Source of the DNA: a virus | Taxonomy: Duplodnaviria > Caudoviricetes | IMG/VR virus record: IMGVR_UViG_3300034170_000057 | Direction: 5' to 3' (one strand) | DNA: 64,000 nt | Shown here: positions 15,211-52,082 of the stretch, one piece after another | Position numbering within the stretch: position 1 is the stretch's first letter | Layout of the letters: the number at the start of each line of letters is the position of its first letter | The notes under the pieces: generated by a model | Databases searched by the model: none | The model's input: the letters and a program-made list of their open reading frames with translations, nothing else | What the model was told of the DNA's origin: nothing | Translations under genes and position numbers: made by a program

Positions 15211-15516
15211 ATGCACCATACTGTAAATAAGATGAAACGCGAACTGTGCGCAATTATTCTCAACGAATTAGAGCGTCAGGCACGGCCCATGCTGAAGGGT
15301 ATTCCACACTACCAGAAGCAGGCACGCATTCAATTATTTGTGCAGGGTCAATACCTGCGCATGGGCGGCCCGCTTAATCGCGAACTCACTCCATATTTCC
15401 ACGAATCAGTACCAGCCAACGAATGCGAAAAGCTGGTTGATGCAGACCTCGACGTGCTGATTGCCATCGCGGCTAAACTCGGCTACGCGCTGGAACTGAC
15501 GTGGCAACGCAAATAG
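15211..15516 (+). CDS. hypothetical protein with a possible HTH-like C-terminus (true start may be 15232)
   Basis: LDVLIAIAAKLGYALELTW resembles the end of XRE HTH domains. Confidence 0.5.
   Translation: MHHTVNKMKRELCAIILNELERQARPMLKGIPHYQKQARIQLFVQGQYLRMGGPLNRELTPYFHESVPANECEKLVDADLDVLIAIAAKLGYALELTWQRK
15219..15229 (+). promoter_or_regulatory. motif A TACTGTAAATA, ~300 nt upstream of the SbcD-like gene
   Basis: Exact copy. Confidence 0.5.
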
Positions 15517-25729: not shown

Positions 25730-26142
25730 GCCTTAGTACCGCTCTGGATGGGATCGAAAGCATCCTGACCATTATCAAGAAGGGCGATGCGCCGCCTGAG
25801 AAAAAACTCGAAGCAATTAAAGACTTGGGCGAGATTTTGCGCAACGATATTCAGGATTTGGCCGACGCTGTTTACTCGGACTACGTACCTGAATTGCCGC
25901 CGATTTCATTCGACATGGAACTGGCGGTAAAGGATCTTCTCGAAGCCTTCCGTAAACAGGTATACAACAACCTCTACTGCTACTACGATTTGTCGCCATT
26001 CAGAGACGAACCCGATCCATACGTGCGTGTCGCAATTGCAACTGCGCTTGTGAAATATGCGCAGGAACAAAAACGCGAACCGAACTCGACGTGGGCCGCG
26101 ATCATCCAAACTGAAGGCGTGATTTCCGAGGGTGACGAATGA
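25726..26142 (+). CDS. hypothetical protein, 138 aa
   Basis: ATGA overlaps at both ends. Confidence 0.65.
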   Translation: MSLSTALDGIESILTIIKKGDAPPEKKLEAIKDLGEILRNDIQDLADAVYSDYVPELPPISFDMELAVKDLLEAFRKQVYNNLYCYYDLSPFRDEPDPYVRVAIATALVKYAQEQKREPNSTWAAIIQTEGVISEGDE

Positions 26143-29100: not shown

Positions 29101-32100
29101 CACCGGGTGAAAAATTCCTGAGTGATCTTGCGGTTAACGCGCCACCGAACACGATTTTTATCAGTTCGATGACTTTCATTCAGGGCCGGAACACTCGCGT
29201 TTGTATCGGTAATGCGCAGGTTAACTTCTCGCAAAACCTTGAGCTGGTCCGTCGCCTCGGTTGCAACTATGTGGCAATCGACGAATCGCACAACCTGAAA
29301 TCTTTCAAATCTGCGCGTCACCGTGCGGTAAAAATTCTGACCTCCTCGACCACCGTCAAATGGCTGCGCCTGCTGACTGGTACGATCATGCCAGACCGTG
29401 CGAAAGATATCGAAGGGCAAATCGCGTTGAAAGCACCGCACGTTTTCCGTGCTGGTGATATCGCGAATATCAAGCCCGATCAGGAAGCGGAAAAAGACAG
29501 CGGCCAAGTGAAAATTGGTGATCGCATCATTACCACTTTTACACCGTTGAACGGTAAACGTGCGGTCGATAAACTCGGTCACTATATTTCGTTTATCGTG
29601 AAAGAGAAAAAAGACTGGGCCTACATGCTGCCGTCCGCAATCGAACGTTTTCACCCGGTTCCAATGGTGGACTATGAGGGTTCCGACGGTACGAGCGCGG
29701 TAGAAATCGAACAGCAAAAACTGCACGAACAGCTTTATCGTTTGGTACTCGACCGCACGTTGGAAGAAATGGAACCTTTGCTGCGCCAGAAAGCGAAAGC
29801 TGAAAAGCTCGCAGATAAAGGCGACGGCGACGACGAAGAGGACGAAGACGATAGCGACGGTAAAGGGCCGGATACCACCGATAACGACGCTGACTTTGCT
29901 GGCGACAAAATCAAACAGAAATTGTGGGAGAAAAACATCGCGCGTTTTGAACGCCTGATTATCTGCCCGCAGGAAGACGAAGCCTACGACGAAGTTTTCG
30001 GCTCGATGGGTGAAGGTTTTGTTTCGCGAAAAGCGAAGTACATCGCGAACCTGACTGCGCAACACTTTAACCCGCAGAAATGGAAACGTGGCGAGCGTTA
30101 TATCGAACTCGACCTCGTTGATTTCGAAGGTCAGCTGTACGTCGCACGAAAATATAATCCGGGCGAAACTCGTGTTGCAATTCCGGATGGTGCGAAGGGC
30201 AAAACCCCAGTCGAGGCTCCAGATTATTGGAAGCCGGAACCAAAGGGCAAGCTGATCATTATCACGCGTTACAACGCAAGCGCACGCGCAATTTACGAAG
30301 CGCTGCCGTCGAACTACCAGTCGATGGCTGTGAAATTCACCGGTGATGAACCGGATCGCGTGAAGGCTTTCAACGATTTCAAAACTGATGATCGCGTACA
30401 AATTCTGATCGCGAACGAACAAGGCATGTCCGAAGGCCATAACCTTCAATTGGCAAGCCGGATGATTCGTGCGGAAGCCCCGTGGGGGCCGGGTGCATTG
30501 GCTCAAACTGCTGCGCGTGTATGGCGTCCTGATGCGAAGGGTGCAATTGCAGCGGCGAAGGGTGAAGGCGGTCTGACCCGTGACGTGGTTTATCTGGATT
30601 GGGTACTCGCTGACAACACTATGGAAGTGCCGAAATTGGCGCGTGTTATTTCCAAGACTTTTGGTGTTGCACGAATCACCGAAGCATCGAATCCGTTGTA
30701 TCAGGAATTGTTGGCTTCCGTGGTTGTTCCAACGGAAAAAGAAGACGCACGTTTGTCGCTTAGCGTGGATATGCTCGCTTCCACTGCTGGCCTCGACGAC
30801 GAACCTTTTAACGAAATGGAAGACGCGTATCGTCGCCTCAACGCCGTCGAATCGAAAGAGTTCGCAGAAATGCGCAACACGATGAAAGCGGATATGTTGC
30901 CGATTGAAGGCGCTCCAAATCTGGAAGGCTCGGCGCGTATGGAACTTGTTCCTTTCGTTGCGAACCAGCCAATCCCCGACCAAAACAATTGGGGCCTGTT
31001 GAACGTCGAAGTTCTGATGCGTGACGCGGAACTGTTGAAAAACTATCGCGAAACTCTTCGCACTAAACCGGTTGTTACGGAATGGGGCACAGGGCGTATC
31101 GTTGGGTTCAACACTCGTGGCGGTAAGCTGTCGAGTTTGATTGTGAACTTGAAAAACCCACCATCCGGTATGGCTGGGCGTATCACCATTCAAACGAACA
31201 TGGCCTACATTGCACAACGCAATATCACGCCTGAGCAAGAAGCACGTTTCTTTGAAGTGTCGCTCGCTGGTACGGATACCGAAGAAAAACGCACAGCCTC
31301 TCGCCAAAAACGTTTGGAGGATCAGCAGAAGAAACAAGCTGAAGCCGAAGACCGTGAAGCACGGATCAAGAAAAGTCAGGAAACCGACAAGATCCGCGTT
31401 ATCAAGAAAGAGGCGAAAGACGGCGCGGTTCGCGAAGACAACGAGAAAAAAGGTCGCCCAATCAACGAGGGTATTTACGATACTGGCGGTACGGTGAAAA
31501 TCGGCGGGGGCAAGAAACTCAAAGCCACCGACAACCCGAAAGTCGGCGTCGTTGTGGAACAGGAAGAATTCCCGGAAGAGGCAGCAGAGGTTCCGGAAGT
31601 TTCGCTGTATCCTGCCTACTACCACGGGTTCGCAACACTGGAAGCAATTCCAGAAGGTGGCGATCCGCAGTTGAAGAAAGCTGGCTTCCAATTTACTCCG
31701 GCCTTCGCGTATATCAACGTTTCGAACAAGAAGAAATTCCACGCGATCTACGATTGGGTTTACGAAAACTTCGAAGTGAACGACAAATTGAACGACTTGT
31801 TTATGTCGATCAACAACGCGTTCGACGAAGGTCAGAAAAATACCCACAAGTTGTGGTATCGCTTGGAACTGGCACCGGTTTCTGAATTGCCAGCGTTCTT
31901 CAGCGTGCAGAAACGCATGAGCAGTAATCGTCGGGCCATTCGCGTGTTCCCGATCTTTACCGAAGAACACGTGATGTTGTGCGTGGACTTGCGGACTAAC
32001 CCCGGCATCATCAAGCACATCGGCAAAGCTATTCCGAATGCTGGCGCCAAGTGGATGAAATCTGACGGTGAATGGATGTACTTCGGGAAGAATAAAACCG

Positions 32101-32210
32101 ACCTGAAATCCAAGATTGCCGAAGTCGTGCGCAGCGGCATTAGCGTTTCGAACAAAGATCAGGCTCTGAAAGAGTTGTCCGAACTGACCTTCAAATATAA
32201 AACCCGCTAA
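26139..32210 (+). CDS. giant SF2 (SNF2-like) helicase/translocase, 2023 aa
   Basis: Q-motif FPHQE, Walker A LAPGGGKT, Walker B VAIDESH, motif III LTGT, motifs V-VI SEGHNLQ...W.P....QTAARVWR. Confidence 0.85.
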   Translation: MNRAMWKQNPIADVLRKKRLELQQQDELAEQLAAYARANGEDDDENDDENDDGDDSSEFVKSIRTISLEPARNMEYESFFYPKKERNFLVPILESLSDVTANINLFFRFMRLCMQSANQLSQYSEEQVEARISSIFVQIFQSKRTSSSVEQDVVAFLRASRRTAHSFHNVYRSKRYNEGLDIVLMGAGADPEKEGLPAPYFGVEDFKLGRSEYLESNNTHPMTDFARRGKWQSPIGERIIAAAREIHMFLWGTVASSERMIHRGIPLNTKFSDIERIWVKNTGLKLPTAGELITDMVVSNPFAEQFLQIEVIKQPSQAVKTFTEKVRNTRPAFNEQQLSPTAINSKIEDALNGANPKISPESELLNVTLRASIRFTLESDVAHFVSQTPESARPSLTRTNSWFSLYIAQVLRAKVSGTGKAYKVTNTSAIRMEHIPRYATSASTLKRVPALREQFGYVVEKTKGNAENMFITPQGTMAVRPSIDALQKTTLAEDFEKTSEELLELLSRNEIPLAAFQDDYRAEKWPWVDAQDLERMQELVKALDNFAGCSLGFDWDFGINIQATSTPGRTITSTSVGSVTPDSLAIADWLGFNLANEGEKPMKRSFSQSMYTLSHGEHTAWAYKRAEELYGAADDHLKFAKSGLVTNLVNLYMRIAYVDNKAPQLPELLAGAMRALNYQKLPTEQGFDFSQDYTKYLTQEGTLIDRHKGNVRGIILGLLETAMDMASGAQGTHLWNETFENLRNGDKTPRASEVSLELENHPDYFNSTISTAAEFARLYRYFGGQVFKQILDAINSVEIEHFANAKGGEQIVELGEMPDSPGRQYSISLTLQPNATLYKDVLPFAVMLGKYAPNSETIFAEAAEQVESIKPDPSFSSDDIKFPGMIGEDRAIFPHQEDVQSSLRKKNPPNFAILALAPGGGKTGQGIIDIACLMADMKEAGLVVRPLVICPNGLINTWCEEMKYFQGANWNAFPISSDVLSRWTAKNAPGEKFLSDLAVNAPPNTIFISSMTFIQGRNTRVCIGNAQVNFSQNLELVRRLGCNYVAIDESHNLKSFKSARHRAVKILTSSTTVKWLRLLTGTIMPDRAKDIEGQIALKAPHVFRAGDIANIKPDQEAEKDSGQVKIGDRIITTFTPLNGKRAVDKLGHYISFIVKEKKDWAYMLPSAIERFHPVPMVDYEGSDGTSAVEIEQQKLHEQLYRLVLDRTLEEMEPLLRQKAKAEKLADKGDGDDEEDEDDSDGKGPDTTDNDADFAGDKIKQKLWEKNIARFERLIICPQEDEAYDEVFGSMGEGFVSRKAKYIANLTAQHFNPQKWKRGERYIELDLVDFEGQLYVARKYNPGETRVAIPDGAKGKTPVEAPDYWKPEPKGKLIIITRYNASARAIYEALPSNYQSMAVKFTGDEPDRVKAFNDFKTDDRVQILIANEQGMSEGHNLQLASRMIRAEAPWGPGALAQTAARVWRPDAKGAIAAAKGEGGLTRDVVYLDWVLADNTMEVPKLARVISKTFGVARITEASNPLYQELLASVVVPTEKEDARLSLSVDMLASTAGLDDEPFNEMEDAYRRLNAVESKEFAEMRNTMKADMLPIEGAPNLEGSARMELVPFVANQPIPDQNNWGLLNVEVLMRDAELLKNYRETLRTKPVVTEWGTGRIVGFNTRGGKLSSLIVNLKNPPSGMAGRITIQTNMAYIAQRNITPEQEARFFEVSLAGTDTEEKRTASRQKRLEDQQKKQAEAEDREARIKKSQETDKIRVIKKEAKDGAVREDNEKKGRPINEGIYDTGGTVKIGGGKKLKATDNPKVGVVVEQEEFPEEAAEVPEVSLYPAYYHGFATLEAIPEGGDPQLKKAGFQFTPAFAYINVSNKKKFHAIYDWVYENFEVNDKLNDLFMSINNAFDEGQKNTHKLWYRLELAPVSELPAFFSVQKRMSSNRRAIRVFPIFTEEHVMLCVDLRTNPGIIKHIGKAIPNAGAKWMKSDGEWMYFGKNKTDLKSKIAEVVRSGISVSNKDQALKELSELTFKYKTR

Positions 32211-33162: not shown

Positions 33163-33173
33163 AACTGTAAATA
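33163..33173 (+). promoter_or_regulatory. motif A variant AACTGTAAATA upstream of the DNA polymerase
   Basis: Intergenic; ends 33 nt before the ATG. Confidence 0.6.
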
Positions 33174-33206
33174 TACCGTAGGCCTAATCCCCTAACGGGT
33201 ATCTCT

Positions 33207-36170
33207 ATGAAGTATGAATATGTAGAGTTTTCCCACAAGTATGGCAAGGTGCTGAAGCAGTACGACATTACCGGATTCGATAACGTTGAACTAGCCAAGC
33301 ACGTAACCAAAAAAGCTCGTGGCAAAATTCTGTTTGTGTTGGACTACATGCCGGGCGAGGCGTTGCGCAAGCGGCGTATTCTCGATGGGGCGACCGGCGA
33401 TCTTATGCAGAACCTTTTTTGGGCTGCCGAAGAGTATTACAAAGCGCCGAACAAGTTGGACGATTACAACTGGTTGTGCATGAGTTATCACAGCTTCAAA
33501 ACCGTCGGCGGTGCGCCGGGGTTTATGGAGATTGCACAGCAAGAATTCAAGAAGCGTTTGGAATACATTATCTCGGTTTACAAACCGGATACGGTTGTGA
33601 CGTTCGGGTCTGATCCGACCAAAGCAATCAGCGGCGATTTTATCGCGCAGCACAAAAGCGAACGTGGTGTTTTGTGGCAACACTTCTACGGGGTGCCGAT
33701 CAAAGCCAGCGTTACGGTGAAGGGCGACACTCACAAATTCAATCACGTATCTACCCTGTCATTGCGCTCATTGCAGAAATCCGATGACTCGATGGCAGCA
33801 GCCGGTTACGTGGCGCGGAACCTGACGACCTGTCTTAATGACGGCGAGTTGATGTACAAGATTCCGAAGTTGGATTATAAGATCGTGATGGTTGATACGA
33901 TCAAGAAATTCGACAAGATGTTGAAAGACATTACCAACGCAGAATACGTGGCAATCGACACGGAAACGCGAAATCTAAAACGGAGGAAAAACTACACGGT
34001 GACGTGGCAGTTCGCGACGGATGCGGGGAAGGCGTATATCTTGCCTTTCCTGCATAAGGACACGCCATTCCTCCCGAAAGAAATTCAGTACATCAAAGAG
34101 AAGTTGCGTGACTACTTCGAATATAAATCGAAGAACAAATACAACCTCTACGCAAACGCCGCGTTCGACCTGATCGCTGCACGTCGTGACCTTGGTGTTC
34201 GTTTCTTCAAATGCAAACTGTGGTGTGTTATCTCGGCGGAATTCGCCAAGGATGAAAACCACAAAGCGATTCAAGGTATCAGCGGGCGGAACTATTATTC
34301 GCTGCTGAATATCACCATGCAATATGGTTGTCGTGCTTACTACGAATCCGATTTCGGTAAGGAACAGCGCGCATTCATTGCGGACATGGATCTAGAAGGG
34401 CCTGTGCTTACGTACATGGCCCTCGACGTTATTGTGCTGCTACACATCCAGAAATTGCAGCTGAAGCAGGCCAAGAAAATTGGCTATAAGAAATATGAAT
34501 CGCTCGTTACTGAGCAGCTGAGTGACCAGATTCACACGCTCTCCAATCTTGAATACAACGGCTCCTATGTCGATATCGACTGGTTGTTCAAACTCAAGTC
34601 GAAAGATTCACATATTGTGCGGGAGAAAAACCGCGTAATTAAAGCGCTGTACGAATCGGAAGGTGTGGCGAAAGCGAACAAGCTGCTGGCGAAGAAAACC
34701 GGCGTGCCTGCCATGGGCCTGTTCGGTCGAACGAAAACGAAGCTGTTCAAGATCAATAAGGACGAACACAAGCAGCTGCTGTTCTTCGAAGTGCTGAAAC
34801 TCAAGCCGCTGACGATGAACAAAAAGGGTCAGGGCAAGATCGACAAAGACTTCCAAAAGAAATACGAAGACGTACCGGAAGTTAAGCTGTTTACCGAACT
34901 GACCAAGATCGAAAAACTCTACAACGCATACGTGAAGAGCTTCATTAAAAAATGGGGCGAAGACGAAGACTTCCGATTCGACCGCTGCATGCGTCCTCGA
35001 TTCGGTTATCTCGATGTGGTTACGGGTCGAACATCGGCACGCGATCCAACGTTGCAGACAATTCCGTCGCGTAGTGAAATGGGTAAACTGATTAAACGAT
35101 TGTTCATTGCACCGAACGGTCGAATAATTATCAAGGTGGACTACTCGGCGCACGAAGTACGATGCTGGTCGCTGATTTCCGGCGATGGCGCGGTAGCCGA
35201 TGCATTCCGGATTGGTTTGAAATTGCGTGAGAAATTCAAGCGCAAACCAACCCTCGACCTTGCCCAAGAAATTGACCTGAAAGGTGACGTACACAAAATC
35301 AACGCCGCGTTCTTCTTCCGTAAGAAAATTCAGGAAGTTGACAAGGTGATGCGTCAAGCGGTTAAGCAGGTAATTTTCGGTCTGATTTACCAGCAAGGCG
35401 CGAAGGGTACAGCGAAGTCGATTAATGCCACGGTCGAAATGGTTGAAGAGCTGACGACACAGTTCTTTAAACGCTTCCCTGTTGGCGGTAAGTGGTTTGA
35501 GAAGGCCAAGGCACACGCACGTAAGCACCTGTACGTGGAATCGCCTGTGGGCCGTCGTCGTAACCTGTGGGCGTTGATCACGCCGCAATCGCATGAGGAC
35601 TCCGGCAACATCCTGTCGCGTTCCGAACGGCAATCTGTAAATAGCCCAGTACAGGGCATGGGTTCTGATTTCATGATGACGGGTGCCCGCTGCATTGAAC
35701 GTCGCCGGTTTGAGCATTTCCAGAAGACCGGTCACTATCCTGATTTCATTCAGGCAAATAGCGTACACGACTCCCTTGAATTCTCGTGTGCATACGAAGA
35801 CATTTGGCTGGCAATTCAGATGATCGAAGAGGGCCTGACCAACGACGTAGAACGCGAAATGATCGCACGTCACGATTTCAAGTTTGATATCCAATTGGAA
35901 ATCGACTTCGAATTCGGTCACTCGCTCGATAAGTGCGAAGGTTGGAATTACGCTTTGACTGGTGATTTCAAGACGAAAGATAAATACGCATTCAACGAAG
36001 TAATCATGAAAACTCTTCGGGGTCAGCGCGACGATCTAGGTTTCGATCTTGATCCAAACGCCACGTTCAAACAAATCATGGCGCGCATGAAAGAGGACGC
36101 ACCGGAATGGGCCTTGAAACAGAAAAACTTTTGGACGAAACAGGGTGTGAAGATCAAGGCTACGGCGTAG
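33207..36170 (+). CDS. polA: family-A DNA polymerase with a 3'-5' exonuclease and an N-terminal UDG-like domain
   Basis: Exo I DTET, Exo II NAAFD, Exo III YMALDV; TGRTSARDPTLQTIP; motif A DYSAHEVR; motif B RQAVKQVIFGLIY; motif C VHDS. The ~210-aa N-terminus has a UDG-like layout (KILFVLD...I..YKPDTVVTFG). Confidence 0.92.
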   Translation: MKYEYVEFSHKYGKVLKQYDITGFDNVELAKHVTKKARGKILFVLDYMPGEALRKRRILDGATGDLMQNLFWAAEEYYKAPNKLDDYNWLCMSYHSFKTVGGAPGFMEIAQQEFKKRLEYIISVYKPDTVVTFGSDPTKAISGDFIAQHKSERGVLWQHFYGVPIKASVTVKGDTHKFNHVSTLSLRSLQKSDDSMAAAGYVARNLTTCLNDGELMYKIPKLDYKIVMVDTIKKFDKMLKDITNAEYVAIDTETRNLKRRKNYTVTWQFATDAGKAYILPFLHKDTPFLPKEIQYIKEKLRDYFEYKSKNKYNLYANAAFDLIAARRDLGVRFFKCKLWCVISAEFAKDENHKAIQGISGRNYYSLLNITMQYGCRAYYESDFGKEQRAFIADMDLEGPVLTYMALDVIVLLHIQKLQLKQAKKIGYKKYESLVTEQLSDQIHTLSNLEYNGSYVDIDWLFKLKSKDSHIVREKNRVIKALYESEGVAKANKLLAKKTGVPAMGLFGRTKTKLFKINKDEHKQLLFFEVLKLKPLTMNKKGQGKIDKDFQKKYEDVPEVKLFTELTKIEKLYNAYVKSFIKKWGEDEDFRFDRCMRPRFGYLDVVTGRTSARDPTLQTIPSRSEMGKLIKRLFIAPNGRIIIKVDYSAHEVRCWSLISGDGAVADAFRIGLKLREKFKRKPTLDLAQEIDLKGDVHKINAAFFFRKKIQEVDKVMRQAVKQVIFGLIYQQGAKGTAKSINATVEMVEELTTQFFKRFPVGGKWFEKAKAHARKHLYVESPVGRRRNLWALITPQSHEDSGNILSRSERQSVNSPVQGMGSDFMMTGARCIERRRFEHFQKTGHYPDFIQANSVHDSLEFSCAYEDIWLAIQMIEEGLTNDVEREMIARHDFKFDIQLEIDFEFGHSLDKCEGWNYALTGDFKTKDKYAFNEVIMKTLRGQRDDLGFDLDPNATFKQIMARMKEDAPEWALKQKNFWTKQGVKIKATA

Positions 36171-36496
36171 ACGTAAGCGGCATGCGCATAACGGAATTTT
36201 CAGCCTCGGTGCATGGTGCGGATATCAACGATCCGCGCCTAGCTGACCTCTGCACATTCCTGCAAGCGCTGGTGTTTCGTTTGCAGGCCGTCGATACCGA
36301 TATGCCGGTCTACGCAACACAGGAATCCGTGGATGAGCTTCTGGATATTCTAGAGGCTCAAGTGGTCACGAAATTCAAATTGGTATTCGCGTGGGATGGT
36401 GTGATCGCCGTATGTGAGGAAACAGAAACCCTGAGCATGCTGATTCGAATGATCGGCTACGACCACGCAAACATTTTCGGATATACCCTACAATGA
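36107..36496 (+). CDS. hypothetical protein (start may be 36182)
   Basis: ORF track; ATGA overlap with the clamp gene. Confidence 0.5.
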   Translation: MGLETEKLLDETGCEDQGYGVDVSGMRITEFSASVHGADINDPRLADLCTFLQALVFRLQAVDTDMPVYATQESVDELLDILEAQVVTKFKLVFAWDGVIAVCEETETLSMLIRMIGYDHANIFGYTLQ

Positions 36497-37635
36497 AATT
36501 GATCGAAGGTAACGAACTAGAATTCGAGTGTAACGGTAAGGAATTTGCCTCAACACTTTCCAACATTATCAACGTGACGATGTACATCAAAGCGGACGAT
36601 GCCAAGTTTATTTTGGCGACACAAAAAGGCAAAGGTATTTTCCTGATTGGTTCGTCCACTGATGCACTGGCCTGTGCAAAGATCGGTGGTACTGCCACCA
36701 AATCGGGCACTGTGAAAATCGACGCGCCAACCCTGATCGGCCTGTTGAAATCTCGTGGTGACTGCCTGTTCAAAACGGGCGGCGGTCAAATCGCTTTCAA
36801 GGAAAAGAAAGGCAACTTCAAAGCGACGATCAACGTTACGGAATTCGACGCTGACGATATCCAGATGTTGGAACACCAATTGGTCGGCAAGAAAACCGAT
36901 CCAATGCCAAAGGATGTTGTGACGAAGTTGCGCGATGCTGTGAAGCGTGTGCGTCTTCAGGATTTCTATGGATCGTCGGAACTCCCGATCATCTTTGAAA
37001 TCGGCACAAAAGTCATGCGCGTGTACTGCCACGACGAACACCACGTGGCACTGTTCAAAACGAAAGTGAAGAACAACGCCCCGCTGAAAACTGCACTGCC
37101 TGCCAAAGCGTTTTCCGTGATCGAAAAGTTCATCCAATCCGACAAGATTAGTTTCTCGGTGGACTCCGGTCGGTTCCGTGCAACTGGTGCTGATTTCACC
37201 GTGTCGATTCCCGAAGGCCAGTTGCTTTATGGCGAAGTCGGGCAGGCGGTGATTTACAACAAAGCACTAGATGAAATGAAAGTTATGAGCGCCATGACCT
37301 TCGACACGAAAGCTGTCGATGTGGTTTCGAACATGGCGGTTCTGACTGACGGCGAAACGAAAATGGCGCTCGCTCTGGAAGAGGGCCACGTGAAAATGAG
37401 CGTGCAGGGCAAAGGCGGTCGTGTATCCGATGAATTCGAAGCCAACGTAACCGGGAAGGCCATGGATATTCGTGTTGACCCACGGATTTTTATGGATCTT
37501 TTTAATAAAGTATCCGGTATCGAAATCGACATGAACTTCTACAAGGTGCCCGGTGCAATGTCGGCCTATCGCCTTGTGACAAAAGTCGATGGCGGCACCC
37601 TGACTCTGGTCGGCACATATGATGAAGCGAAGTAG
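36493..37635 (+). CDS. dnaN: sliding clamp, DNA polymerase III beta (DnaN)-like
   Basis: 380 aa with a three-domain beta-alpha rhythm, C-terminal IRVDPRIFMDLF like DnaN I.FN..YL.D; next to the polymerase, with a DnaX-like loader in the window. Confidence 0.7.
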   Translation: MKLIEGNELEFECNGKEFASTLSNIINVTMYIKADDAKFILATQKGKGIFLIGSSTDALACAKIGGTATKSGTVKIDAPTLIGLLKSRGDCLFKTGGGQIAFKEKKGNFKATINVTEFDADDIQMLEHQLVGKKTDPMPKDVVTKLRDAVKRVRLQDFYGSSELPIIFEIGTKVMRVYCHDEHHVALFKTKVKNNAPLKTALPAKAFSVIEKFIQSDKISFSVDSGRFRATGADFTVSIPEGQLLYGEVGQAVIYNKALDEMKVMSAMTFDTKAVDVVSNMAVLTDGETKMALALEEGHVKMSVQGKGGRVSDEFEANVTGKAMDIRVDPRIFMDLFNKVSGIEIDMNFYKVPGAMSAYRLVTKVDGGTLTLVGTYDEAK

Positions 37636-39646: not shown

Positions 39647-41326
39647 ATGGGAAAAATAATCGTATCGGATAAGATGTACATTCCGAAATTCGACCTCAAG
39701 GAAAGGCTAGTCACGAAGGAATATTCACATGACTTCTTTTCTGATATGGGTTGTCGAAGTTGCGAGCTACGGCCAGAGCGTCCGGTAGCAGCCTGTAAGG
39801 GTTGTGAGAACTTTAACGGTTCATACCGGCTGGCCCGCGCTGCTGTAATCGGGAATAAAGAGTACATCGGCCTACCACTAGGCGACCGGCAAAACATCGA
39901 AGAAAAAATGCGCATTGATTTCGACGACTACAAAATCGTCGATAAGCGCACACGTGCCCCCTTCGATTACAAAGTCAAAATCGACTTAGGCGAAGACCGC
40001 GATTGGTTTAGCTATCAGCTCAAAACCGTTAAGCGAATGAAAGAGGCCAAGTACGGCCTTTTCGTGCTTCCGCCCCGTTCCGGTAAATCGCTTACTGCAT
40101 TAAAACTGGCAATCGAACTAGGACATAAAGTTCTGTTGATGGCCGACCAATACGACTTCCTGAATCAATTCATCGGGGATATCGAAGAGTCCACCAACCT
40201 GCCAAGATTGCAGGAACGGACGGGCAAAAAGCTGTACGGATTTATCAAGTGCGTCGAAGACCTCGAAGACATTCAAATCGGGATCATCACCTACCAAAGT
40301 TTCCTGAGCAAGAATGGTAAAAAGCTGCTGAAAGCGTGCAACAAAACTTTCGGCACCGTGGTAGTGGACGAAGTGCAGGCAACGGGCGCGCCCGAGTTTG
40401 CGAACGTCATGAACAATCTGAAAATGCGTTACCGCTTCGGCTGTACCGGTACTGAGAAACGCAAGGACGGCAAAGACAAAATCACCACGTTGGTAATCGG
40501 TGAAGTTAAGTCCAAGATCCTGCGTGCGCAGCTGGTTGCAAAAATGCTGGCGGTTGATACCGGCATGAAATCGAAAGGTGTGTTCAAAGGCAAACCGGGT
40601 TTTGTGAAGCTGGGCAAATCGCTGGCGAATCACAAGAAGCGAAACGAATTCATTATCCAGTGGATTCTGAAAGACCTTGAGGCCGGACACAGCATCGTAA
40701 TTCCCTGCCATTTCAAACAACACATTTTCGATATCGTGAAGCGCGTTAATACGCTGGTCGGTTACGAAGTGGCGGCTGCCTTTGTTGGTGGCGGTGGCAA
40801 GAAAAACAAGTTGGAACGTGACCACATTAAAAAGATGGCGAACGAACGGAAAATTCGTGTTGTTGTCGGTATCCGTCGCCTGTTGCAGCGCGGTATCAAC
40901 ATCAAGCCATGGTCATGCCTGTACTACATCATGCCGATGAACAACGAACCAAACTGGAAACAGGAAAGTTCGCGTATTTTGACGCCTGATCCTGACAAGC
41001 GACAACCCATAATTCGTTTCTTCGTGGACACGGGCGCGCAAGCCTCATTGAAGTATTGTGCGAACACGTGGAAACAGGCATTGGAATTTAAACACCAGCC
41101 GACCGAAGTTGCTGAAGAGCGTATGAAATTGTGGTTACGAAATGTGAAGCGTGATATTGGGGAAGACTACGAACCTGACGAACAGGTCGAAGTTTCCAAG
41201 GTCGCGCACAATGACGGCGCAAGTATGTTCGGTGGTATGTTCGCCAAGTTGGGCGCGGGCATTCGCAAACAGAAGAACGAAAACAAGGCTGAGAGAAAAT
41301 CGAAATGGGCGAAGAAAAACAAGTAG
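39647..41326 (+). CDS. UvsW/XPB-like SF2 DNA helicase with an N-terminal Cys4 motif
   Basis: YQ Q-motif, Walker A PPRSGKS, DEVQ, GCTGTEKRKDG, RGINIK..., QESSRILTP; CRSC...CKGC zinc site. Confidence 0.8.
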   Translation: MGKIIVSDKMYIPKFDLKERLVTKEYSHDFFSDMGCRSCELRPERPVAACKGCENFNGSYRLARAAVIGNKEYIGLPLGDRQNIEEKMRIDFDDYKIVDKRTRAPFDYKVKIDLGEDRDWFSYQLKTVKRMKEAKYGLFVLPPRSGKSLTALKLAIELGHKVLLMADQYDFLNQFIGDIEESTNLPRLQERTGKKLYGFIKCVEDLEDIQIGIITYQSFLSKNGKKLLKACNKTFGTVVVDEVQATGAPEFANVMNNLKMRYRFGCTGTEKRKDGKDKITTLVIGEVKSKILRAQLVAKMLAVDTGMKSKGVFKGKPGFVKLGKSLANHKKRNEFIIQWILKDLEAGHSIVIPCHFKQHIFDIVKRVNTLVGYEVAAAFVGGGGKKNKLERDHIKKMANERKIRVVVGIRRLLQRGINIKPWSCLYYIMPMNNEPNWKQESSRILTPDPDKRQPIIRFFVDTGAQASLKYCANTWKQALEFKHQPTEVAEERMKLWLRNVKRDIGEDYEPDEQVEVSKVAHNDGASMFGGMFAKLGAGIRKQKNENKAERKSKWAKKNK

Positions 41327-41549: not shown

Positions 41550-41882
41550 ATGTTTTCACGTGCGCAACGATTGCGTTTCTACAAGTGGCTCAAAGGTTGG
41601 GCCGCTAGAAAAGAACGTAAAGCGGATATGGAACGCCGCTTTAGCACCCTGTGCTGTCCGCACTGCAACACGTGGGATTCCAATATGCCTAACCGTCGCT
41701 GGGAAGGCATGAATCCAAATACACCAACGCCGCAACACGACCAGTTTAAATGCGGGCAGTGTGGGCAATGGACAACTTGGCTGGATACCGGGATGGGCAG
41801 AGCCCTCGACGATCCGGCATTCCCTGATAACCGACCGCAATGGGTCGAAGTGAAACCGAAAAATGAAGGATCTGATACGTAA
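41550..41882 (+). CDS. zinc-ribbon protein
   Basis: CPHCNTW...FKCGQCGQWTTW. Confidence 0.65.
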   Translation: MFSRAQRLRFYKWLKGWAARKERKADMERRFSTLCCPHCNTWDSNMPNRRWEGMNPNTPTPQHDQFKCGQCGQWTTWLDTGMGRALDDPAFPDNRPQWVEVKPKNEGSDT

Positions 41883-42147
41883 ACTTTTTGGTATCCGCAA
41901 TTACGAAGAGGACTTCGACGCGGGTGTTAAATATGTAAAATCTGAATTGCGCAAATACGGCAAAAACAATCTGATGGAAAATAGTCGGTTGTGGGCTGAG
42001 TGTGATTCGAGTGGTTTTGACCCTACGGGCTATGACGCGGGTATGCGACAGGCTCTGAAAACTTACGATATTCCACACCCTTTTGATCAGGTGAATTATG
42101 GAACACGAATCGCCGCTACCGATGCTGACTGTGGTTGTAAACGGTAA
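41863..42147 (+). CDS. hypothetical protein, ~94 aa
   Basis: ORF track; F..G......F..G-type pattern. Confidence 0.55.
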   Translation: MKDLIRKLFGIRNYEEDFDAGVKYVKSELRKYGKNNLMENSRLWAECDSSGFDPTGYDAGMRQALKTYDIPHPFDQVNYGTRIAATDADCGCKR

Positions 42148-42439
42148 GTCCGAACAGCGGCCCCTTGAATGCATCCAGACAATGAGGGACGGGCGAACTC
42201 GCACGGTTCCTCGGCTACGGGTTGGTGAAGAGGCGCATTACACCGTGGATGGTGGGATTGTGATTACGACGTACCCGATTCCACCTTCTGATTACGTGAC
42301 CGAAATTCGTTTCGAACCGGGTAGCGGCGAGTACCCTAAATACATCGTCACTTATGCGGACGGTCACGAACGGGAAGTATCAAAAGAATATGCAGAATCC
42401 CTGCACAAAGAAATGGAGGAACGTCATGCAAAGTTTTAA
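42098..42439 (+). CDS. hypothetical protein (start may be 42122)
   Basis: ORF track. Confidence 0.55.
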   Translation: MEHESPLPMLTVVVNGKSEQRPLECIQTMRDGRTRTVPRLRVGEEAHYTVDGGIVITTYPIPPSDYVTEIRFEPGSGEYPKYIVTYADGHEREVSKEYAESLHKEMEERHAKF

Positions 42440-42580: not shown

Positions 42581-42591
42581 TACTGTAAATA
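42581..42591 (+). promoter_or_regulatory. motif A TACTGTAAATA upstream of the DnaC-like gene
   Basis: Exact copy; ends 36 nt before the ATG. Confidence 0.55.
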
Positions 42592-42627
42592 AACCATATC
42601 CATCCACTTACACTACGGGGCACTCTG

Positions 42628-43503
42628 ATGGCAAGGGAACTCAAGCCAGCCAAGAAGCGCACACTGTCCTCGGAACTGAAAATGTCCAAGGAGGACAAAC
42701 CGCTCAAGAAACTTAAATTCGAGCGGGAGGAAGAAGAGGCCAGTAAAGAACGGGAAGAAAAAACCAGTTCTATCCAACCGCGCCGCCGTGCCGTAGTGGA
42801 GAAAGTAAACAGCATAAGAAAGCCGAAGGGAAAGGTTAGCGCACCATCGCGCATGCCTGCACCATCCCTGAAATTCCGTTTTGATTCGGATCGCGTGAAA
42901 CTGCTGAAGTCGCAAGGTGTGGACGGTACTGCATTGCAAGTAATGCGTAGCCCGTTTCTGCTGGATGACGCGCTTGTCTCCATTACTCCGATGGTGCCGA
43001 AATGGTTGCCCGAGGATTACCAGATTGCAAAAACCAGTGTGAAGCGACAGATTGAAACCTGTTATCGCATGCTGACAAATCCGTTGCATGGTTCGCCAAT
43101 TATTGGCATTGGTTCCATGGCAACAGACGAACGTGCAAAGTTTATGGCAATGAGCATTATGGATGCAGCCATTGATCAGCAGCGTTCGGGTTCACACAAA
43201 GGTAAACTGCTTCCGGTGTGGCACCGGGTATTTGGCGGATACCAAGACGAATTGCGTGATGAAAAACAACGTCGAAACATTTCGATGGTTATCATTGCAA
43301 ATGTGGGACCAGACTCGACGCCGCATAAGCTGGAAAAGGTGCGGGACTTGCTGGAGAAGTACGACAATATTCCGCGAATCGTTGTAGTGAACGGGTGCGA
43401 CCCGGTTACTTTCTTTGCGGAGAAAATGCGAATGCCGATGCAGTTTGCTTTGATGCTCAATAGCAAGCGCAGTGATAAAGCCGACTTGATGGACATTTTA
43501 TGA
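42628..43503 (+). CDS. degenerate DnaC/IstB-like P-loop protein with a basic N-terminus
   Basis: MVIIANVGPDSTPHKLEKVRDLLEKYDNIPRIVVVNG parallels DnaC LLIIDDLG.E..T....E.L..LL......PTIVTTN, but both Walker motifs are altered. Confidence 0.45.
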   Translation: MARELKPAKKRTLSSELKMSKEDKPLKKLKFEREEEEASKEREEKTSSIQPRRRAVVEKVNSIRKPKGKVSAPSRMPAPSLKFRFDSDRVKLLKSQGVDGTALQVMRSPFLLDDALVSITPMVPKWLPEDYQIAKTSVKRQIETCYRMLTNPLHGSPIIGIGSMATDERAKFMAMSIMDAAIDQQRSGSHKGKLLPVWHRVFGGYQDELRDEKQRRNISMVIIANVGPDSTPHKLEKVRDLLEKYDNIPRIVVVNGCDPVTFFAEKMRMPMQFALMLNSKRSDKADLMDIL

Positions 43504-44282
43504 TCTCACTCGATAAGTTCGAAGAAATCAAAACCGACGAAGCCAACCTACACCGATTCATTGCAATGCTGGAACACGGCTACAGCTGGCTTAGCGCCAA
43601 GTGTATGCACGCGCTCGGCGGCGTAGGTGATGGTATCTACGAAGACGAAGAAAACGAAAGCGATTTCCCGGAAGAAACCGAAGCTGATAAGAATTTGGCG
43701 CCGGACGATATGCGCCGGACAATCATTAAAGCCAAGATCGAAGCACTCGATGATTTCGATCCGCATAAATTCGAAGACCCGGATTATTTCGACGAACCAA
43801 TCGAGTTTGATGAATTCAATCCAGATGAACCGGCCCCATTCAAAGAGCCGGCCGACGAAGCCCCTGCAATTGCGGATCTATACCGGAAGATCAAACAGCT
43901 TTCGCATCCGGACAAGATCATGCGTTTCAGCGCCGCCGACAAAGTGTTAATCGTTGAGATATTCCACGAATCAACCGAATTCATGGAAGACGACAATCTG
44001 GAAGCATTGGTATTCTGTTATGCCAAGCTACTGATCATTCGTCACGAACCACACCGCATTCCGGATTACGTTGAGGAATTCATTCGCAAACGTCATACGC
44101 AAATCTTGCGGCATATGGCGTTCCTTATGGAAAAGCCTTTTACCGAGGCAATTCTCGCATGGCGCGATGGCAATGAAGCGTGGGCAATTGTCCTGTTTAA
44201 ACGTTACCTGAAAGAAGAAGCACGCAATGATGAATTGAATCGCCAGCATGCACAATCCGATGAAGAGTATTTCAAGGATTAA
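43500..44282 (+). CDS. J-domain (DnaJ-like) protein
   Basis: IADLYRKIKQLSHPDK (helix II + HPD loop) followed by a helix-III-like IFHESTE; acidic linker upstream. Confidence 0.7.
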   Translation: MISLDKFEEIKTDEANLHRFIAMLEHGYSWLSAKCMHALGGVGDGIYEDEENESDFPEETEADKNLAPDDMRRTIIKAKIEALDDFDPHKFEDPDYFDEPIEFDEFNPDEPAPFKEPADEAPAIADLYRKIKQLSHPDKIMRFSAADKVLIVEIFHESTEFMEDDNLEALVFCYAKLLIIRHEPHRIPDYVEEFIRKRHTQILRHMAFLMEKPFTEAILAWRDGNEAWAIVLFKRYLKEEARNDELNRQHAQSDEEYFKD

Positions 44283-44304
44283 TCATTACAAATGCAATAC
44301 AATG

Positions 44305-44329
44305 AGGGGGCCTATATGGCCCCTTTTTT
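44305..44329 (+). terminator. intrinsic terminator ending the replication block
   Basis: AGGGGGCC-TATAT-GGCCCCTTTTTT. Confidence 0.8.
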
Positions 44330-44351
44330 GTTGCCTGAAATCCCCTTTGCG

Positions 44352-44425: not shown

Positions 44426-46066
44426 ATGGCTTTTACTAACTCCAGTGCTGGGGTTTATGATCAGGATCGCGATGTAAGCGGACGCGGTTCACCGGTCATT
44501 AGTTCTATCGCAGCAGCTGTAATCGAGGCCGGTCGCGGCTCCACGTCGGAATGGATTTACGTTACCGACAAACAAGATTTGCAGGAAAAGTTCGGTGTTA
44601 AGGACTATTCCAAATACGGTTACGGCATGCATTGTGCTGAACACGTTTTGGCACAAACTGCAATGTGGCTCAAACGCGCAACAAACGCGGCCACCGCCCG
44701 TACCGCTGGCGCTTATTTGAGCGTTGACGATACCGCTGCATCGGAACCAGTTTTGAAGCTGGTGAATTTCGACGACGGTTCGAATAAACCCCAAGGCGTA
44801 TTGGGCAATCCGCTCGACGTACTGGGTTTCAACGTGAGTGATGCGGGCGTTAAAAACGTATTGCTTTACGTTTGTGCAAATTCGCCGGGTGAATGGGCAA
44901 CCACAATTACCGTTCGCGTGCGTCCGGGCAATCCAGAAGGCACCGAGGTTGGCGAGTACACCGACGCTACCCATTTCTATCTGGAAGTTTTCCTGAATTA
45001 TCAGGGCAGCTCCAGCCTTCCGGTTGAATCCTATCTGTGTTCGCGTAAATACGAACTGGATGGCGAAGGCAATCAGATGTTTGTCGAGTCGCGTGTAAAC
45101 TCGTTCTCGCAATACATCAAAGTGAAAAACAACACGCTTTGCCCAGCTGTTGAAATTCACACCACCACGTTCGAAAAACTCGATGGTGGTAACGATGGCG
45201 TTCGCGCTACCGAAGCCGAAGTTATTAACGCGTGGGACGGTATCGACGACACCGATCAATACGCGGTTCAAATGCTGGTTGGTTGCGGCCAAGAAAGCCC
45301 GGTTGTTCATCGTCGTCAGGATACCGTGGCTCAAACCCGTGGTGATGCGATTTCGATCATCGACCTGCCGTATGCATTCGAGGAAGTTTCGCGTGCAGTG
45401 AATTACCGTCGCAATACGCTGAACCTGAGTTCCAGCTATTCGGCAATGTACGGCCCGCGTGGTCAAATCACCGACGACATTTCGGGCAAGAAGTTTTTCT
45501 GCCCTATTTCCGGTTTGGTTGCCGCGCAATACGCGTTTACCGACCGCGTTCGTGCCTACTACTGGGCACCGGCTGGTTTGAATCGTGGTCAGGTAAAAGT
45601 CACGGATCTTTCCAAGAAATACTCGTTGCGTGAGCGTAACGCTTTGCAACAGGCGCAAATCAACTACGTGCGTCGGATTCCGGGCCGTGGTTTCGTGATC
45701 ATGGAACAGCTGACTTTGCAGAATTTCGCGTCTGGTTTCCAGAACGTGAACGTGCGTCGTCTGGTTAACGGTATCAAGGCAATGATCCGCAAAGCCTTCT
45801 TGCCGTCGGTATTTAACCCGGCTGACGATTACGAACGCAAACAGCTGAAAAACATCGTTGACGCCGAAGCAGCCTCGGTTAAACGCGGTCGTGGTTTGTA
45901 CGAATGGGAAACCGTTTGCGACAGCCGGAACAACAAACCGGCAGATATTGCGAATAACGATATCAACCTCGATTTCGTAATCGACCCAAGCATTCCGGCC
46001 AGCCGTGCTTCCCTGACCGCCGATATCCGTAACGCCGGTTCCTCTATCAACTTCCAAGAGAATTAA
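44426..46066 (+). CDS. contractile tail sheath protein
   Basis: N-terminal AGVYDQDRD, WAPAGLNRG, LQQAQINYV, QLTLQ...NVNVRRL, VCDSRNN..DI.NN.....F.I.P: gp18-like pattern. Confidence 0.9.
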   Translation: MAFTNSSAGVYDQDRDVSGRGSPVISSIAAAVIEAGRGSTSEWIYVTDKQDLQEKFGVKDYSKYGYGMHCAEHVLAQTAMWLKRATNAATARTAGAYLSVDDTAASEPVLKLVNFDDGSNKPQGVLGNPLDVLGFNVSDAGVKNVLLYVCANSPGEWATTITVRVRPGNPEGTEVGEYTDATHFYLEVFLNYQGSSSLPVESYLCSRKYELDGEGNQMFVESRVNSFSQYIKVKNNTLCPAVEIHTTTFEKLDGGNDGVRATEAEVINAWDGIDDTDQYAVQMLVGCGQESPVVHRRQDTVAQTRGDAISIIDLPYAFEEVSRAVNYRRNTLNLSSSYSAMYGPRGQITDDISGKKFFCPISGLVAAQYAFTDRVRAYYWAPAGLNRGQVKVTDLSKKYSLRERNALQQAQINYVRRIPGRGFVIMEQLTLQNFASGFQNVNVRRLVNGIKAMIRKAFLPSVFNPADDYERKQLKNIVDAEAASVKRGRGLYEWETVCDSRNNKPADIANNDINLDFVIDPSIPASRASLTADIRNAGSSINFQEN

Positions 46067-50787: not shown

Positions 50788-52082
50788 TTATTTCCCTTGC
50801 CGCATCACCTGCTGATTTCAAGCAGTTCGAATGGATGTACAACGCGGGTAAAAGTTTTAAATTGCGGCTGGACGATACGCCTGTCACGGTCGAGGCTGAC
50901 GATTTGGTCGGTTTCCGTAAAGCAACACGGGGGCCGACCGCTGGCGCGTATCAAGTGGTACTCGCCAAATACCCGCAAAAGATATACCGGTCGATCAAAC
51001 AGGAACAGGTCGATAAATTCATCAAGCAATTCAAAGAGTACAAGGGGATTCCGGAAGCGCCAAAAAAGGAAGGCGCACGGCACCAGTACATGCGGAAAAA
51101 CCAGTTGGAAAATGATCGTCAGGAATCACAGTTTTATGTGAGCCCGTCGAAGCCTCGTGAAGTTCACAGCTACGACCGCGACGATTACCAATGGCGAAAG
51201 GTAATGCACCCTGTGAACGTGGCAACCAAGCATCACGGGACAACCCGTGCCACTATTCGACCGGGTGACATTGTGGGCATGCGCTACCTGCGCAAATCCC
51301 ATGGTGGTTATGTGATTATGCCAAACGGCGAACGCGTGTTGATTTCGCATGAACTGTACGAAGAAATCACGAACAATACCGACATTGAACCGCGTGCCCA
51401 GCAGCAGACGGGACTTGTTGAATTTGCCGAGTTGGCAAAGTCACTTCCTATCCGCTCGCGTGCAATTAAAATCCCGCGTAAACCACGTGACGTTATGACA
51501 CGCGTTTCCCGCACGGGCGTAACCGAAACCGCGAAGCATGTGGCGCGCAATAAGCCACTGACCACCACTTTCGATTACAAAGATATCGACGAAGATTTCG
51601 CATTCGAACCAGAAGACGAAGAAAACCTGTTGAATCCACCTGAAGAACAGGAAGATTTCCCGGATGAAGGGGCGTCTAATACTGTAAATAAAGGAGAAGA
51701 ACCGGGTATTACTTCGCTTGACGACGAAGACTTCGAAGAGGAAGACGATCCAGAAATGGACTTCCACAAAGATCAGGAAACCGATGAGGATGGCGAGCCA
51801 ATCGAGGATGACACCGAAGTAATTGCACAGGAAGGACAAGTGCTGATTGCGCGGGATAATGCCGAGTGGGTAATCGTCAGCCAAGAAGAGCATAACATGT
51901 CGGAAACGCTTGTGCTTTTCAACGAGGAATCCAAAGCTCTTCGTCATTACAAAGTACCGCTCGGTGAAGACTTGCGGAATCTGAAATCTGTTACGGTCGG
52001 TCGCATTATTACTGGCCCTGAGTTGGACAAGATTTTGGAAAAGGCCGCTGACCTTGAAATGACTGCTGGGAAACGTCTATGA
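50784..52082 (+). CDS. hypothetical protein, 432 aa, with a basic N-terminal half and a long acidic linker
   Basis: ORF track; starts MIISLAAS like 58644. Confidence 0.65.
   Translation: MIISLAASPADFKQFEWMYNAGKSFKLRLDDTPVTVEADDLVGFRKATRGPTAGAYQVVLAKYPQKIYRSIKQEQVDKFIKQFKEYKGIPEAPKKEGARHQYMRKNQLENDRQESQFYVSPSKPREVHSYDRDDYQWRKVMHPVNVATKHHGTTRATIRPGDIVGMRYLRKSHGGYVIMPNGERVLISHELYEEITNNTDIEPRAQQQTGLVEFAELAKSLPIRSRAIKIPRKPRDVMTRVSRTGVTETAKHVARNKPLTTTFDYKDIDEDFAFEPEDEENLLNPPEEQEDFPDEGASNTVNKGEEPGITSLDDEDFEEEDDPEMDFHKDQETDEDGEPIEDDTEVIAQEGQVLIARDNAEWVIVSQEEHNMSETLVLFNEESKALRHYKVPLGEDLRNLKSVTVGRIITGPELDKILEKAADLEMTAGKRL
51680..51690 (+). promoter_or_regulatory. motif A TACTGTAAATA, ~390 nt upstream of the ligase
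   Basis: Exact copy. Confidence 0.5.

Follow-up and report, generated by a model that had tools for sequence, protein, structure and literature searches.

The locus considered here raises the question of whether a jumbo phage supplies a J-domain protein of its own to work with the DnaK chaperone of its host. The DNA analysed, called the window throughout, is a stretch of 64,000 nucleotides from the IMG/VR virus record IMGVR_UViG_3300034170_000057 (Duplodnaviria; Caudoviricetes), and the gene in question, called the target, begins at position 43500 and encodes a protein of 260 residues. An initial annotation, made from the sequence alone, had described this open reading frame (ORF) as one with an internal His-Pro-Asp (HPD) motif, an acidic linker and a helical C-terminus, and all of these parts were found in the translation and in the AlphaFold2 model. 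The translation contains LYRKIKQLSHPDK and reads ...APAIADLYRKIKQLSHPDKIMRFSAADK... around its single HPD (residues 136–138, nucleotides 43905–43913). From the comparisons described below, the target is probably a phage-specific J-domain-type co-chaperone of unusual build, which is not part of the virion and functionally engages DnaK. The underlying homology to J-domains, remote and partial as judged from sequence comparison, is quite likely.

The window belongs to a jumbo phage of the Lu11/PaBG/HRDY3 kind. By tblastn, the target was found only in Pseudomonas jumbo phages, namely in HRDY3 (52% identity), Lu11 (38.5%) and PaBG (30.5%, C-terminal half), where the homologues (XDJ15220, gp083 and gp274, respectively) are all annotated as "hypothetical protein". 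When 1.84 billion representatives were searched exhaustively with a profile, the family grew to 45 representative clusters at E ≤ 1e-3, all of 180–302 residues. These 45 representatives and the query make up the family alignment of 46 sequences, with a mean column identity of 18%; a separate profile was built from the 21 sequences of the close clade. Longer, fused forms of the family were not found by the search, which is weak evidence, and neither NCBIfam nor PADLOC gave an assignment for the target or for the gene upstream of it. A tblastn search with P0119 against the named phages gave no match, and the single queries P0124 and P0108 gave no loci. No paper connecting Lu11 with a J-domain was found in the literature searched, and the PaBG paper, supplementary tables apart, makes no mention of DnaJ, J-domain or GINS (PMC7412058).

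Phage J-proteins as such are already known, such as Rki and sporadic DnaJ genes of jumbo phages. What is new here is an unannotated member, invisible to Pfam, whose J unit is truncated and internal and whose partner gene is particular to the clade. The J-like family is widespread, with its 45 representative clusters and with 17 and 61 viral loci in the two sets considered below, and yet it is listed as hypothetical in Lu11, PaBG and HRDY3.

Resemblance of the target to J-domains

H136, P137 and D138 are the only invariant columns of the family alignment (46/46) and are also kept in 21/21 clade sequences; a lysine follows at position 139 in 43 of the 46. Because the motif is invariant among relatives that share so little mean column identity, it is not a chance tripeptide. 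Pfam DnaJ matched 17 of the 46 family members at E ≤ 1, with three members for the next family, and the best DnaJ scores were 26.6 and 26.4 bits as compared with a gathering threshold of 27.8 bits for PF00226. The family alignment was then set against an alignment of 11 genuine J-domains (E. coli DnaJ and 10 phage J-domains) by hhalign, which gave a probability of 82%, an E of 1e-5 and a score of 36.5 over 41–42 columns. Residues 116–163 were paired with DnaJ columns 13–54, covering helix II, the HPD and the AYE of helix III. In the controls, 100 column-shuffled decoys reached a mean score of 9.9 (standard deviation 1.9, maximum 16.3), and the reversed alignment scored 11.1.

Searches of structure collections pointed in the same direction. 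Nine of the 14 PDB sequences listed for the family profile were J-domain proteins by molecule name, aligned over the same stretch; these comprised Sec63 six times (E 0.023–0.024), Ydj1 (0.11) and auxilin twice (0.54–0.67), none of them individually significant. A further sequence among the 14, 2ej7, is presumably the J-domain of a human DnaJ protein. In a Foldseek search of BFVD, the Lu11 and PaBG members of the family itself came first, and six of the ten entries at ranks 3–12 were named J-domain or DnaJ (E 2.8e-3 to 0.7). The nearest predicted-structure neighbours outside the family were "J domain-containing" UniProt proteins from an uncultured marine phage (A0A8D9CF77, E 2.8e-3), Dickeya phage JA11 (A0A386K5Y3, 0.033) and Erwinia phage pEa_SNUABM_5 (A0A7T8EPI4, 0.057), which are of similar length (230–284 residues) at 14–18% identity and carry automatic labels. 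In the Atlas, the nearest clusters were unnamed viral proteins, and the cluster at rank 9 (score 0.87) bears DnaJ on 17% of its members, which is a lead only.

The AlphaFold2 model of the target was built on the 21-sequence alignment and reached a mean predicted local distance difference test (pLDDT) score of 72.5. Its C-terminal part (residues 124–259) is all-helical at a pLDDT of about 90, with helices at 124–134, 137–140, 145–163, 167–180, 189–211, 215–222 and 226–259, and the HPD was placed in the loop between the helices 124–134 and 145–163 (pLDDT 84–94). Antiparallel packing of these two helices, corresponding to helices II and III, is implied by matches of the model to three-helix bundles over residues 123–183. 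Helix II of the family is rich in basic and aromatic positions (K/R125 in 43/46, F/Y128 in 36/46, R/K129 in 44/46 and K/R130 in 29/46), and in the window protein it has an isoelectric point of 9.7. In helix III, F/Y155 (41/46) and Y162 (30/46) show the spacing of F47 and Y54 in DnaJ.

Several results weigh against a J-domain. The window protein itself had no Pfam DnaJ match at E ≤ 1, none of the 46 family members reached the 27.8-bit cut-off, and BLASTP against E. coli DnaJ was not significant, with an E of 1.0 for the HPD stretch. The close-clade profile compared with J-domains gave an hhalign probability of only 9% over 19 columns. When HPDK was masked on both sides, the register of the family alignment was unchanged, and the score fell to 16.4 (1.1% probability), equal to the best decoy; most of the signal therefore comes from the HPD motif itself. 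Nothing of the target was aligned to DnaJ columns 1–12, which hold helix I, and the Pfam matches of the family begin at model positions 7–16. Residues before 124 are modelled as disordered, with a pLDDT below 50 for 88–119. When the Pfam DnaJ hidden Markov model (HMM) was run over the genomes of HRDY3, Lu11 and PaBG, scores were at most 12.9 bits; the match in PaBG and one in HRDY3 lay inside the orthologues of the target, an equally weak one in HRDY3 lay elsewhere, and Lu11 gave no match. The J signal emerged only with the 46-sequence alignment; with one sequence or the close clade, the tests gave a negative or weak outcome. A Foldseek search of the target model against PDB returned no entry at E < 1, with no J-domain or GINS chain among the entries listed, and the best 50 matches of the VIA wide structure search were generic or designed three-helix bundles, which are informative neither way.

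It is unlikely, though a reading to be weighed against these results, that the target is no J-domain protein at all but a phage protein built of helices throughout, such as a scaffold or adaptor of the replisome, whose conserved HPDK turn serves another purpose; the likeness would then be convergent or a motif artefact. Five partly independent routes argue against this, as the Pfam matches of family members, hhalign with its decoys, the profile search of PDB, BFVD and the Atlas cluster all reach J-domains and no other family. The register retained after masking, the basic residues of helix II and the F...Y spacing of helix III argue against it as well. Of the J-domain claimed by the initial annotation, the universal HPD, the profile match and the sub-threshold Pfam hits of 17 members speak for a partial counterpart, whereas a J-domain that is recognisable by Pfam in the window protein, complete with helix I and scoring above decoys without its motif, was not borne out.

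A GINS protein with an Sld5-type A-domain, that is, an archaeo-eukaryotic-type helicase accessory factor, was considered as a further candidate. The best PDB matches of the close-clade profile were six Sld5 sequences (E 0.011–0.49), aligned over residues 141–208 with a stretch resembling E..RI....[FY][IL]R.R...I. With the 46-sequence family profile these matches vanished and J-domains appeared instead. Moreover, PF05916 found nothing at E ≤ 10 in HRDY3, Lu11 and PaBG and had no match in the window protein, and the AlphaFold2 model has no beta-rich B domain. A GINS/Sld5 identity was therefore rejected on the null result with PF05916 and the loss of the PDB matches in the broader profile, and its probability is judged to be very low.

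Build of the protein and engagement of DnaK

The J-like core lies in the interior of the protein and is flanked by parts of a different kind. At the N-terminus, a helix (residues 4–34) was modelled at a pLDDT of 83–93; within and just after it, the clade alignment (n = 21) shows no variation at E25, G27, Y28, L31, C35, A38, G40 and G41, and a helix-like segment at this place is kept throughout the 46-sequence family alignment. Such a helix might bind a client or a partner. The linker that follows (residues 37–119) contains 35% Asp and Glu and has a net charge of −22, with nine aromatic and nine proline residues in motifs such as DFP, DDFDP, DPDYFDEP and EFDEFNPDEP. It was modelled as disordered (pLDDT below 50), and both its length and its sequence vary across the family. 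For the C-terminal helical extension, neither Foldseek against PDB nor the VIA wide structure search gave a specific fold match.

The extension ends in an acidic-aromatic tail (44243–44279, residues 249–260), in which D254 and F258 do not vary within the clade and which occurs in the variants DEEYFKD, DDEFFS and DEDYFA. It is reminiscent of the acidic tails through which proteins dock in replisomes.

Canonical J-domains (PF00226; residues 1–70 of E. coli DnaJ), including those of class C/III proteins, share with the target an HPD loop between helices that are, by implication, antiparallel, a basic helix II and the positions equivalent to F47 and Y54. The target differs from them in that it lacks the "LG" signature of helix I (L10/G11, invariant in the 11 references) as well as the signature of helix IV, and has a longer helix III that runs into a larger helical domain. 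In class C J-proteins, the J unit is combined with unrelated client-binding parts, as would be the case in the target. Another counterpart is Rki, the product of gene 057w of the T4-related phage RB43 and the first phage J-protein to be characterised, which, as predicted for the target, is non-generic and non-virion, acts via host DnaK and joins a J unit to a phage-specific remainder without known fold (PMC3486835). Rki, however, has a bona fide conserved J-domain and is expressed early, as stated in the same text (PMC3486835), whereas the target is sub-threshold, has no helix I and carries its J unit internally (about residues 123–163 of 260).

A J-domain supplied by a virus is also found in the large T antigen of polyomaviruses. 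There, in a eukaryotic virus, an SF3 helicase carries the J-domain at its N-terminus as a fusion in cis, and no homology to the target extends beyond the J unit. Large T is comparable in that its J-domain is linked to the replication machinery and uses host Hsp70 (SV40 is mentioned in PMC12619734).

The positively charged face of helix II in J-domains contacts DnaK. As set out in a review of the system, stimulation of the Hsp70 ATPase has required the HPD wherever this was tested, mutants of the motif being inactive; in DnaJ, H33, P34 and D35 contact L391, P419 and R167/Q378 of DnaK, and the face of helix II is "positioned by electrostatic" interactions on DnaK (PMC8215388). In a corresponding manner, the HPD loop and the basic helix II of the target would dock on host DnaK-ATP at the interdomain linker and trigger ATP hydrolysis, and the N-terminal helix, the C-terminal helices and the acidic linker would select the phage client. 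In this mechanism, it is by inference that DnaK is bound and stimulated, and the choice of client and a role in initiation, if there is one, are inferred as well. Hsp70 (PF00012) was found in none of four related complete phage genomes (HRDY3, Lu11, PaBG and one from IMG/VR). Since the related phages searched carry no Hsp70 gene, the DnaK of the host would be the necessary partner.

The non-virion nature of the protein is suggested by PaBG, in which uvsW is numbered gene 210 and gp213 is the sheath protein (PMC7412058). Judging from gene order, the orthologues of the target and its upstream neighbour would be genes 211 and 212 of that paper. Table 1 of PMC7412058, which gives 14 virion proteins, includes neither of them, with the limit that the gel-band matrix-assisted laser desorption/ionisation analysis used there is insensitive.

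Should the truncated J unit prove active, it would help to define the minimal J-domain and would provide a handle on the Hsp70-dependent steps by which jumbo phages replicate or assemble. On a bolder and unlikely reading, this "mini-J" unit without helix I would represent a widespread phage family invisible to Pfam, and helix II, HPD and helix III would be sufficient to drive Hsp70.

The upstream gene and a possible replication client

The ATG of the target overlaps the TGA stop of the ORF upstream of it (ATGA overlap, TTTTATGATCT), so that the initial description of the two genes as ATGA-coupled is confirmed. The neighbour falls into phrog_20094, labelled "DNA polymerase" (E 6e-104). It matched no Pfam family at E ≤ 1, its sole NCBIfam entry was a chance PTS match, and its profile found nothing below E 0.69 among PDB sequences. 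AlphaFold2, on an alignment of 34 sequences (mean pLDDT 81.4), modelled a disordered N-terminal tail and a confident alpha/beta domain at about residues 85–283. For this model, Foldseek listed RFC subunits first (E 1.8e-4) and DnaC in the DnaBC complex second (5.3e-4), followed by DmpR, Apaf-1, MuB, IstB, Hda and T4 gp44. As predicted, and at the level of the fold only, the neighbour is an AAA+ core of the initiator, loader or clamp-loader kind, closest to IstB, DnaC, DnaA and RFC. In Lu11, PaBG, HRDY3 and PHROGs this family goes by the label "DNA polymerase", apparently in error, as no polymerase feature is present.

The AAA+-like core is degenerate. Walker A GK[ST] is absent in 34/34 relatives, which have the consensus GIGSxP[ST]DxRAK, and the acidic residue of Walker B is equally absent in 34/34 (consensus SMLIIxN[VI], with Asn, Ser or His at the Asp position). 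Compared with the AAA+ ATPases DnaC, IstB, DnaA, Hda and RFC, the neighbour is thus without Walker A and B and without a Pfam or NCBIfam match, no lid or collar domains were modelled, and it has a basic disordered N-terminal tail. The term "DnaC-like", by which the neighbour had been introduced, is accordingly supported in terms of fold, but not in terms of family membership. The neighbour is basic (net charge +16) and the target acidic (−30), a complementarity that is suggestive only. Complex predictions of neighbour residues 80–291 with the target gave 0.43, 0.06 and 0.12 in three runs against a mark of 0.32 and were counted neither for nor against binding.

Conservation of the pair was followed in 20 clade loci, namely HRDY3, Lu11, PaBG and 17 IMG/VR loci, some of which are duplicates of one phage. 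In the three named phages, the orthologue is preceded by a gene of about 250 residues labelled "DNA polymerase" and followed by that of the tail sheath, and a UvsW/ResIII-type helicase is encoded further upstream. All 20 clade loci contain the target and 19 contain the neighbour, the remaining locus (L022) being cut at its 5' end. Both are adjacent or overlapping in 17 of the 19, and the ATGA overlap of 4 nucleotides recurs in 11 of 16 non-duplicate loci, with two more loci showing a 1-nucleotide overlap and PaBG a gap of 2 nucleotides.

The pair also appears to share its transcription. The neighbour is preceded by a phage promoter-type motif, ACTGTAAATAA, whose sequence forms the core of both features that the Lu11 record calls "putative middle/late promoter". 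Seven matches to it (four exact, three with one mismatch) were found in the window, all on the plus strand, as against 0.76 expected, and seven were reached by none of 100 shuffles. The motif stands 31–33 nucleotides before the clamp-loader ORF at 4691 (phrog_5846, 8.9e-91) and the DNA polymerase ORF at 33207 (phrog_17, 8.4e-116); it is also found before several ORFs without assigned function, and the copy at 15220 is just 2 nucleotides from the next long ORF. Because the motif is common to polymerase and clamp-loader genes and a terminator-like hairpin follows the target, these sequence signals make the pair look like a bicistronic unit that belongs to the promoter class of the replication genes and is kept apart from the tail genes.

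A client in replication that involves the neighbour is possible but doubtful. In the Lu11/PaBG clade, the first candidate would be the basic degenerate AAA+-like protein itself or its complex with a replication factor, in parallel to the disassembly of the lambda O-P-DnaB complex by DnaK (PMC8215388), here with a J-protein supplied by the phage. At ori-lambda, where P, DnaB and DnaK-DnaJ-GrpE act, Hsp70 remodels a loader-helicase complex (PMC8215388), and in the window a protein of loader fold is predicted to be co-expressed with a J-like protein beside a helicase gene. Lambda differs in that it uses host DnaJ and encodes no J-protein, whereas in the window the loader-like protein has no ATPase motifs, the helicase is of the SF2/UvsW type instead of DnaB, and the two proteins are putative partners. 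Lambda P is not known to be an AAA+ protein. A specific version, in which the logic of lambda P is supplied by the phage, is unlikely: the catalytically dead, basic protein of loader fold would hold or hand over a replication factor (for instance the clamp or one of the two helicases, the adjacent SF2 enzyme and the giant one), and the coupled acidic J-like protein would bind through its N-terminal helix or linker and recruit host DnaK for release or recycling. If it were true, initiation or replisome assembly would be independent of host DnaJ. With its conserved coupling to a dead AAA+ protein of loader fold, the target forms a concrete, testable pair in which to study how chaperones drive remodelling when phages replicate.

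Two observations count against a replication client. In the loci L033 and L034, the pair is split by 944–947 nucleotides and the neighbour abuts the helicase; the intervening part, which includes L033:3762–4160, holds a DUF1353 gene, labelled "tail assembly chaperone" in PHROGs, as well as an ORF without assignment. Furthermore, among 61 distant loci, each with a member found by the family profile and 47 of them with distinct target sequences, the neighbour family and the helicase were each found within 5 kilobases in 0/61 and a sheath in 1/61. The replication link is clade-specific, the neighbour being absent from 61 of 61 distant loci. Since the neighbour is missing there, the J-like protein is taken as portable and its coupling to the dead AAA+ protein as a feature of the Lu11/PaBG clade. 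The "self-contained DnaK-hijacking initiation module" that had been proposed for the pair accordingly stays conditional; the promoter motif common to replication genes and the adjacency within the clade favour it, and the lack of the pairing in the distant loci counts against it.

No neighbour cluster recurs in more than nine of the 47 distinct distant loci, and the recurrent ones (one example each annotated) are Hsp20 (six loci), DNA primase (six) and guanylate kinase (seven). The small heat-shock gene Hsp20 stands beside the J-like gene in 6/47, directly upstream in four, with a Pfam score of 76 bits (including L053:3778–4248). This linkage hints in a small way, and independently, at chaperone biology, and both genes together may form a small phage chaperone cassette.

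The diversity of neighbours would also fit a role directed at the host, since the J-like family occurs in many phages next to unrelated genes. The target could be a DnaK modulator in the manner of Rki; its J-like unit would then divert or titrate host DnaK, for instance by stabilising sigma-32 and raising heat-shock proteins or by blunting DnaJ/DnaK-dependent host responses, and it would have no dedicated phage client. Rki is indeed a phage J-protein that acts on DnaK function and is not a generic co-chaperone (PMC3486835), and host DnaJ is required by an NLR-like anti-phage system according to work cited in PMC12619734. Rki is, however, expressed early (PMC3486835), whereas the motif before the neighbour is annotated as middle/late and shared with replication genes. 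The conserved translational coupling to the AAA+-like gene suggests stoichiometric production with a phage partner, and the conserved N-terminal helix and C-terminal domain look like partner-binding parts. A modulator without a phage client is thus improbable, and a co-chaperone that engages DnaK on behalf of the phage is preferred.

Downstream structural genes and other features

The position of the target at the boundary between replication and structural genes, as first annotated, was found as described. The order in the window is SF2 helicase, HNH-like ORF, neighbour, target, sheath and tube (Table 1), and sheath and tube lie directly downstream of the target in 18 of the 20 clade loci. 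This arrangement would suit a co-chaperone for virion or tail assembly, which recruits DnaK to fold or assemble the sheath, the tube and other structural proteins encoded downstream. Iyer et al. predict that DnaJ proteins of jumbo phages recruit host Hsp70 for folding and assembly (PMC7824862), and the Hsp20 gene adjoining the J-like gene in some distant relatives points the same way. A terminator-like hairpin nevertheless separates the target from the sheath gene, which had no ACTGTAAATAA motif upstream of it in the window scan, and among the distant loci a sheath gene was nearby only once. In L033 and L034, moreover, the sheath is about 3.8 kilobases away and a ribonucleotide reductase gene (L033:6166–8178) lies between it and the target; the stretch around the target is an insertion hotspot. 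Taking both sides together, a dedicated role in tail assembly is quite unlikely.

Table 1. Positions of the target, its parts and the surrounding features in the window (nt, nucleotides)
Feature	Position	Strand	Remarks
Target gene, J-like protein	43500..44282 (stop codon included)	+	ATG start; ORF of 260 residues
N-terminal conserved helix	43500..43607	+	residues 1–36; ...LEHGYSWLSAKCxHALGG
Acidic, aromatic/proline-studded disordered linker	43608..43856	+	residues 37–119
J-like core	43866..43988	+	helix II 124–134, HPD loop 136–138, helix III 145–163
C-terminal helical extension	43989..44279	+	residues 164–260; acidic-aromatic tail D254...F258
Upstream neighbour	42628..43503	+	291 residues; basic disordered N-tail 1–84 (net +13), degenerate AAA+-like core about 85–283
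Phage promoter-type motif ACTGTAAATAA	42582..42592	+	36 nt upstream of neighbour ATG
Copies of ACTGTAAATAA	4650–4660, 6034–6044, 15220–15230, 25220–25230, 33164–33174, 42582–42592, 51681–51691	+	
Intrinsic-terminator-like hairpin	44304..44336	+	22 nt past target stop; 9-pair stem (6 G-C), 5-nt loop, T-rich tail
Giant helicase	26139–32210	+	helicase-family protein of 2023 residues; phrog_21391, E 0
DNA polymerase	33207–36170		window gene order
Sliding clamp	36493–37635		window gene order
SF2 helicase (UvsW-type)	39647–41326		window gene order
Sheath	44426–46066		window gene order; tube downstream

Around the terminator-like hairpin, contigs identical to the window from an RNA-library run end at 44298 and resume at 44395, thereby bracketing it, and a contig from a DNA run bridges the gap; these RNA-library data come from one study, consist of contigs only, may stem from the very sample that yielded the window and may contain DNA, and they were not counted as evidence for transcription or termination. 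The DNA run also showed small indels inside the hairpin, at 44312 and 44317.

Among the virion proteins of PaBG, the paper includes a 221-kDa "RuvB helicase-like protein", gp202 (PMC7412058). By analogy, the giant helicase of the window, a possible orthologue of gp202, may be packaged in the particle. Between the SF2 helicase and the neighbour, the HNH-like ORF (41550–41882, plus strand) is small and Cys-rich and matches an HNH endonuclease PHROG (1e-10). It is accompanied by two further small ORFs on the same strand (41863–42147 and 42098–42439), which overlap each other by 50 nucleotides and, together with the HNH-like ORF, are kept in most clade loci.

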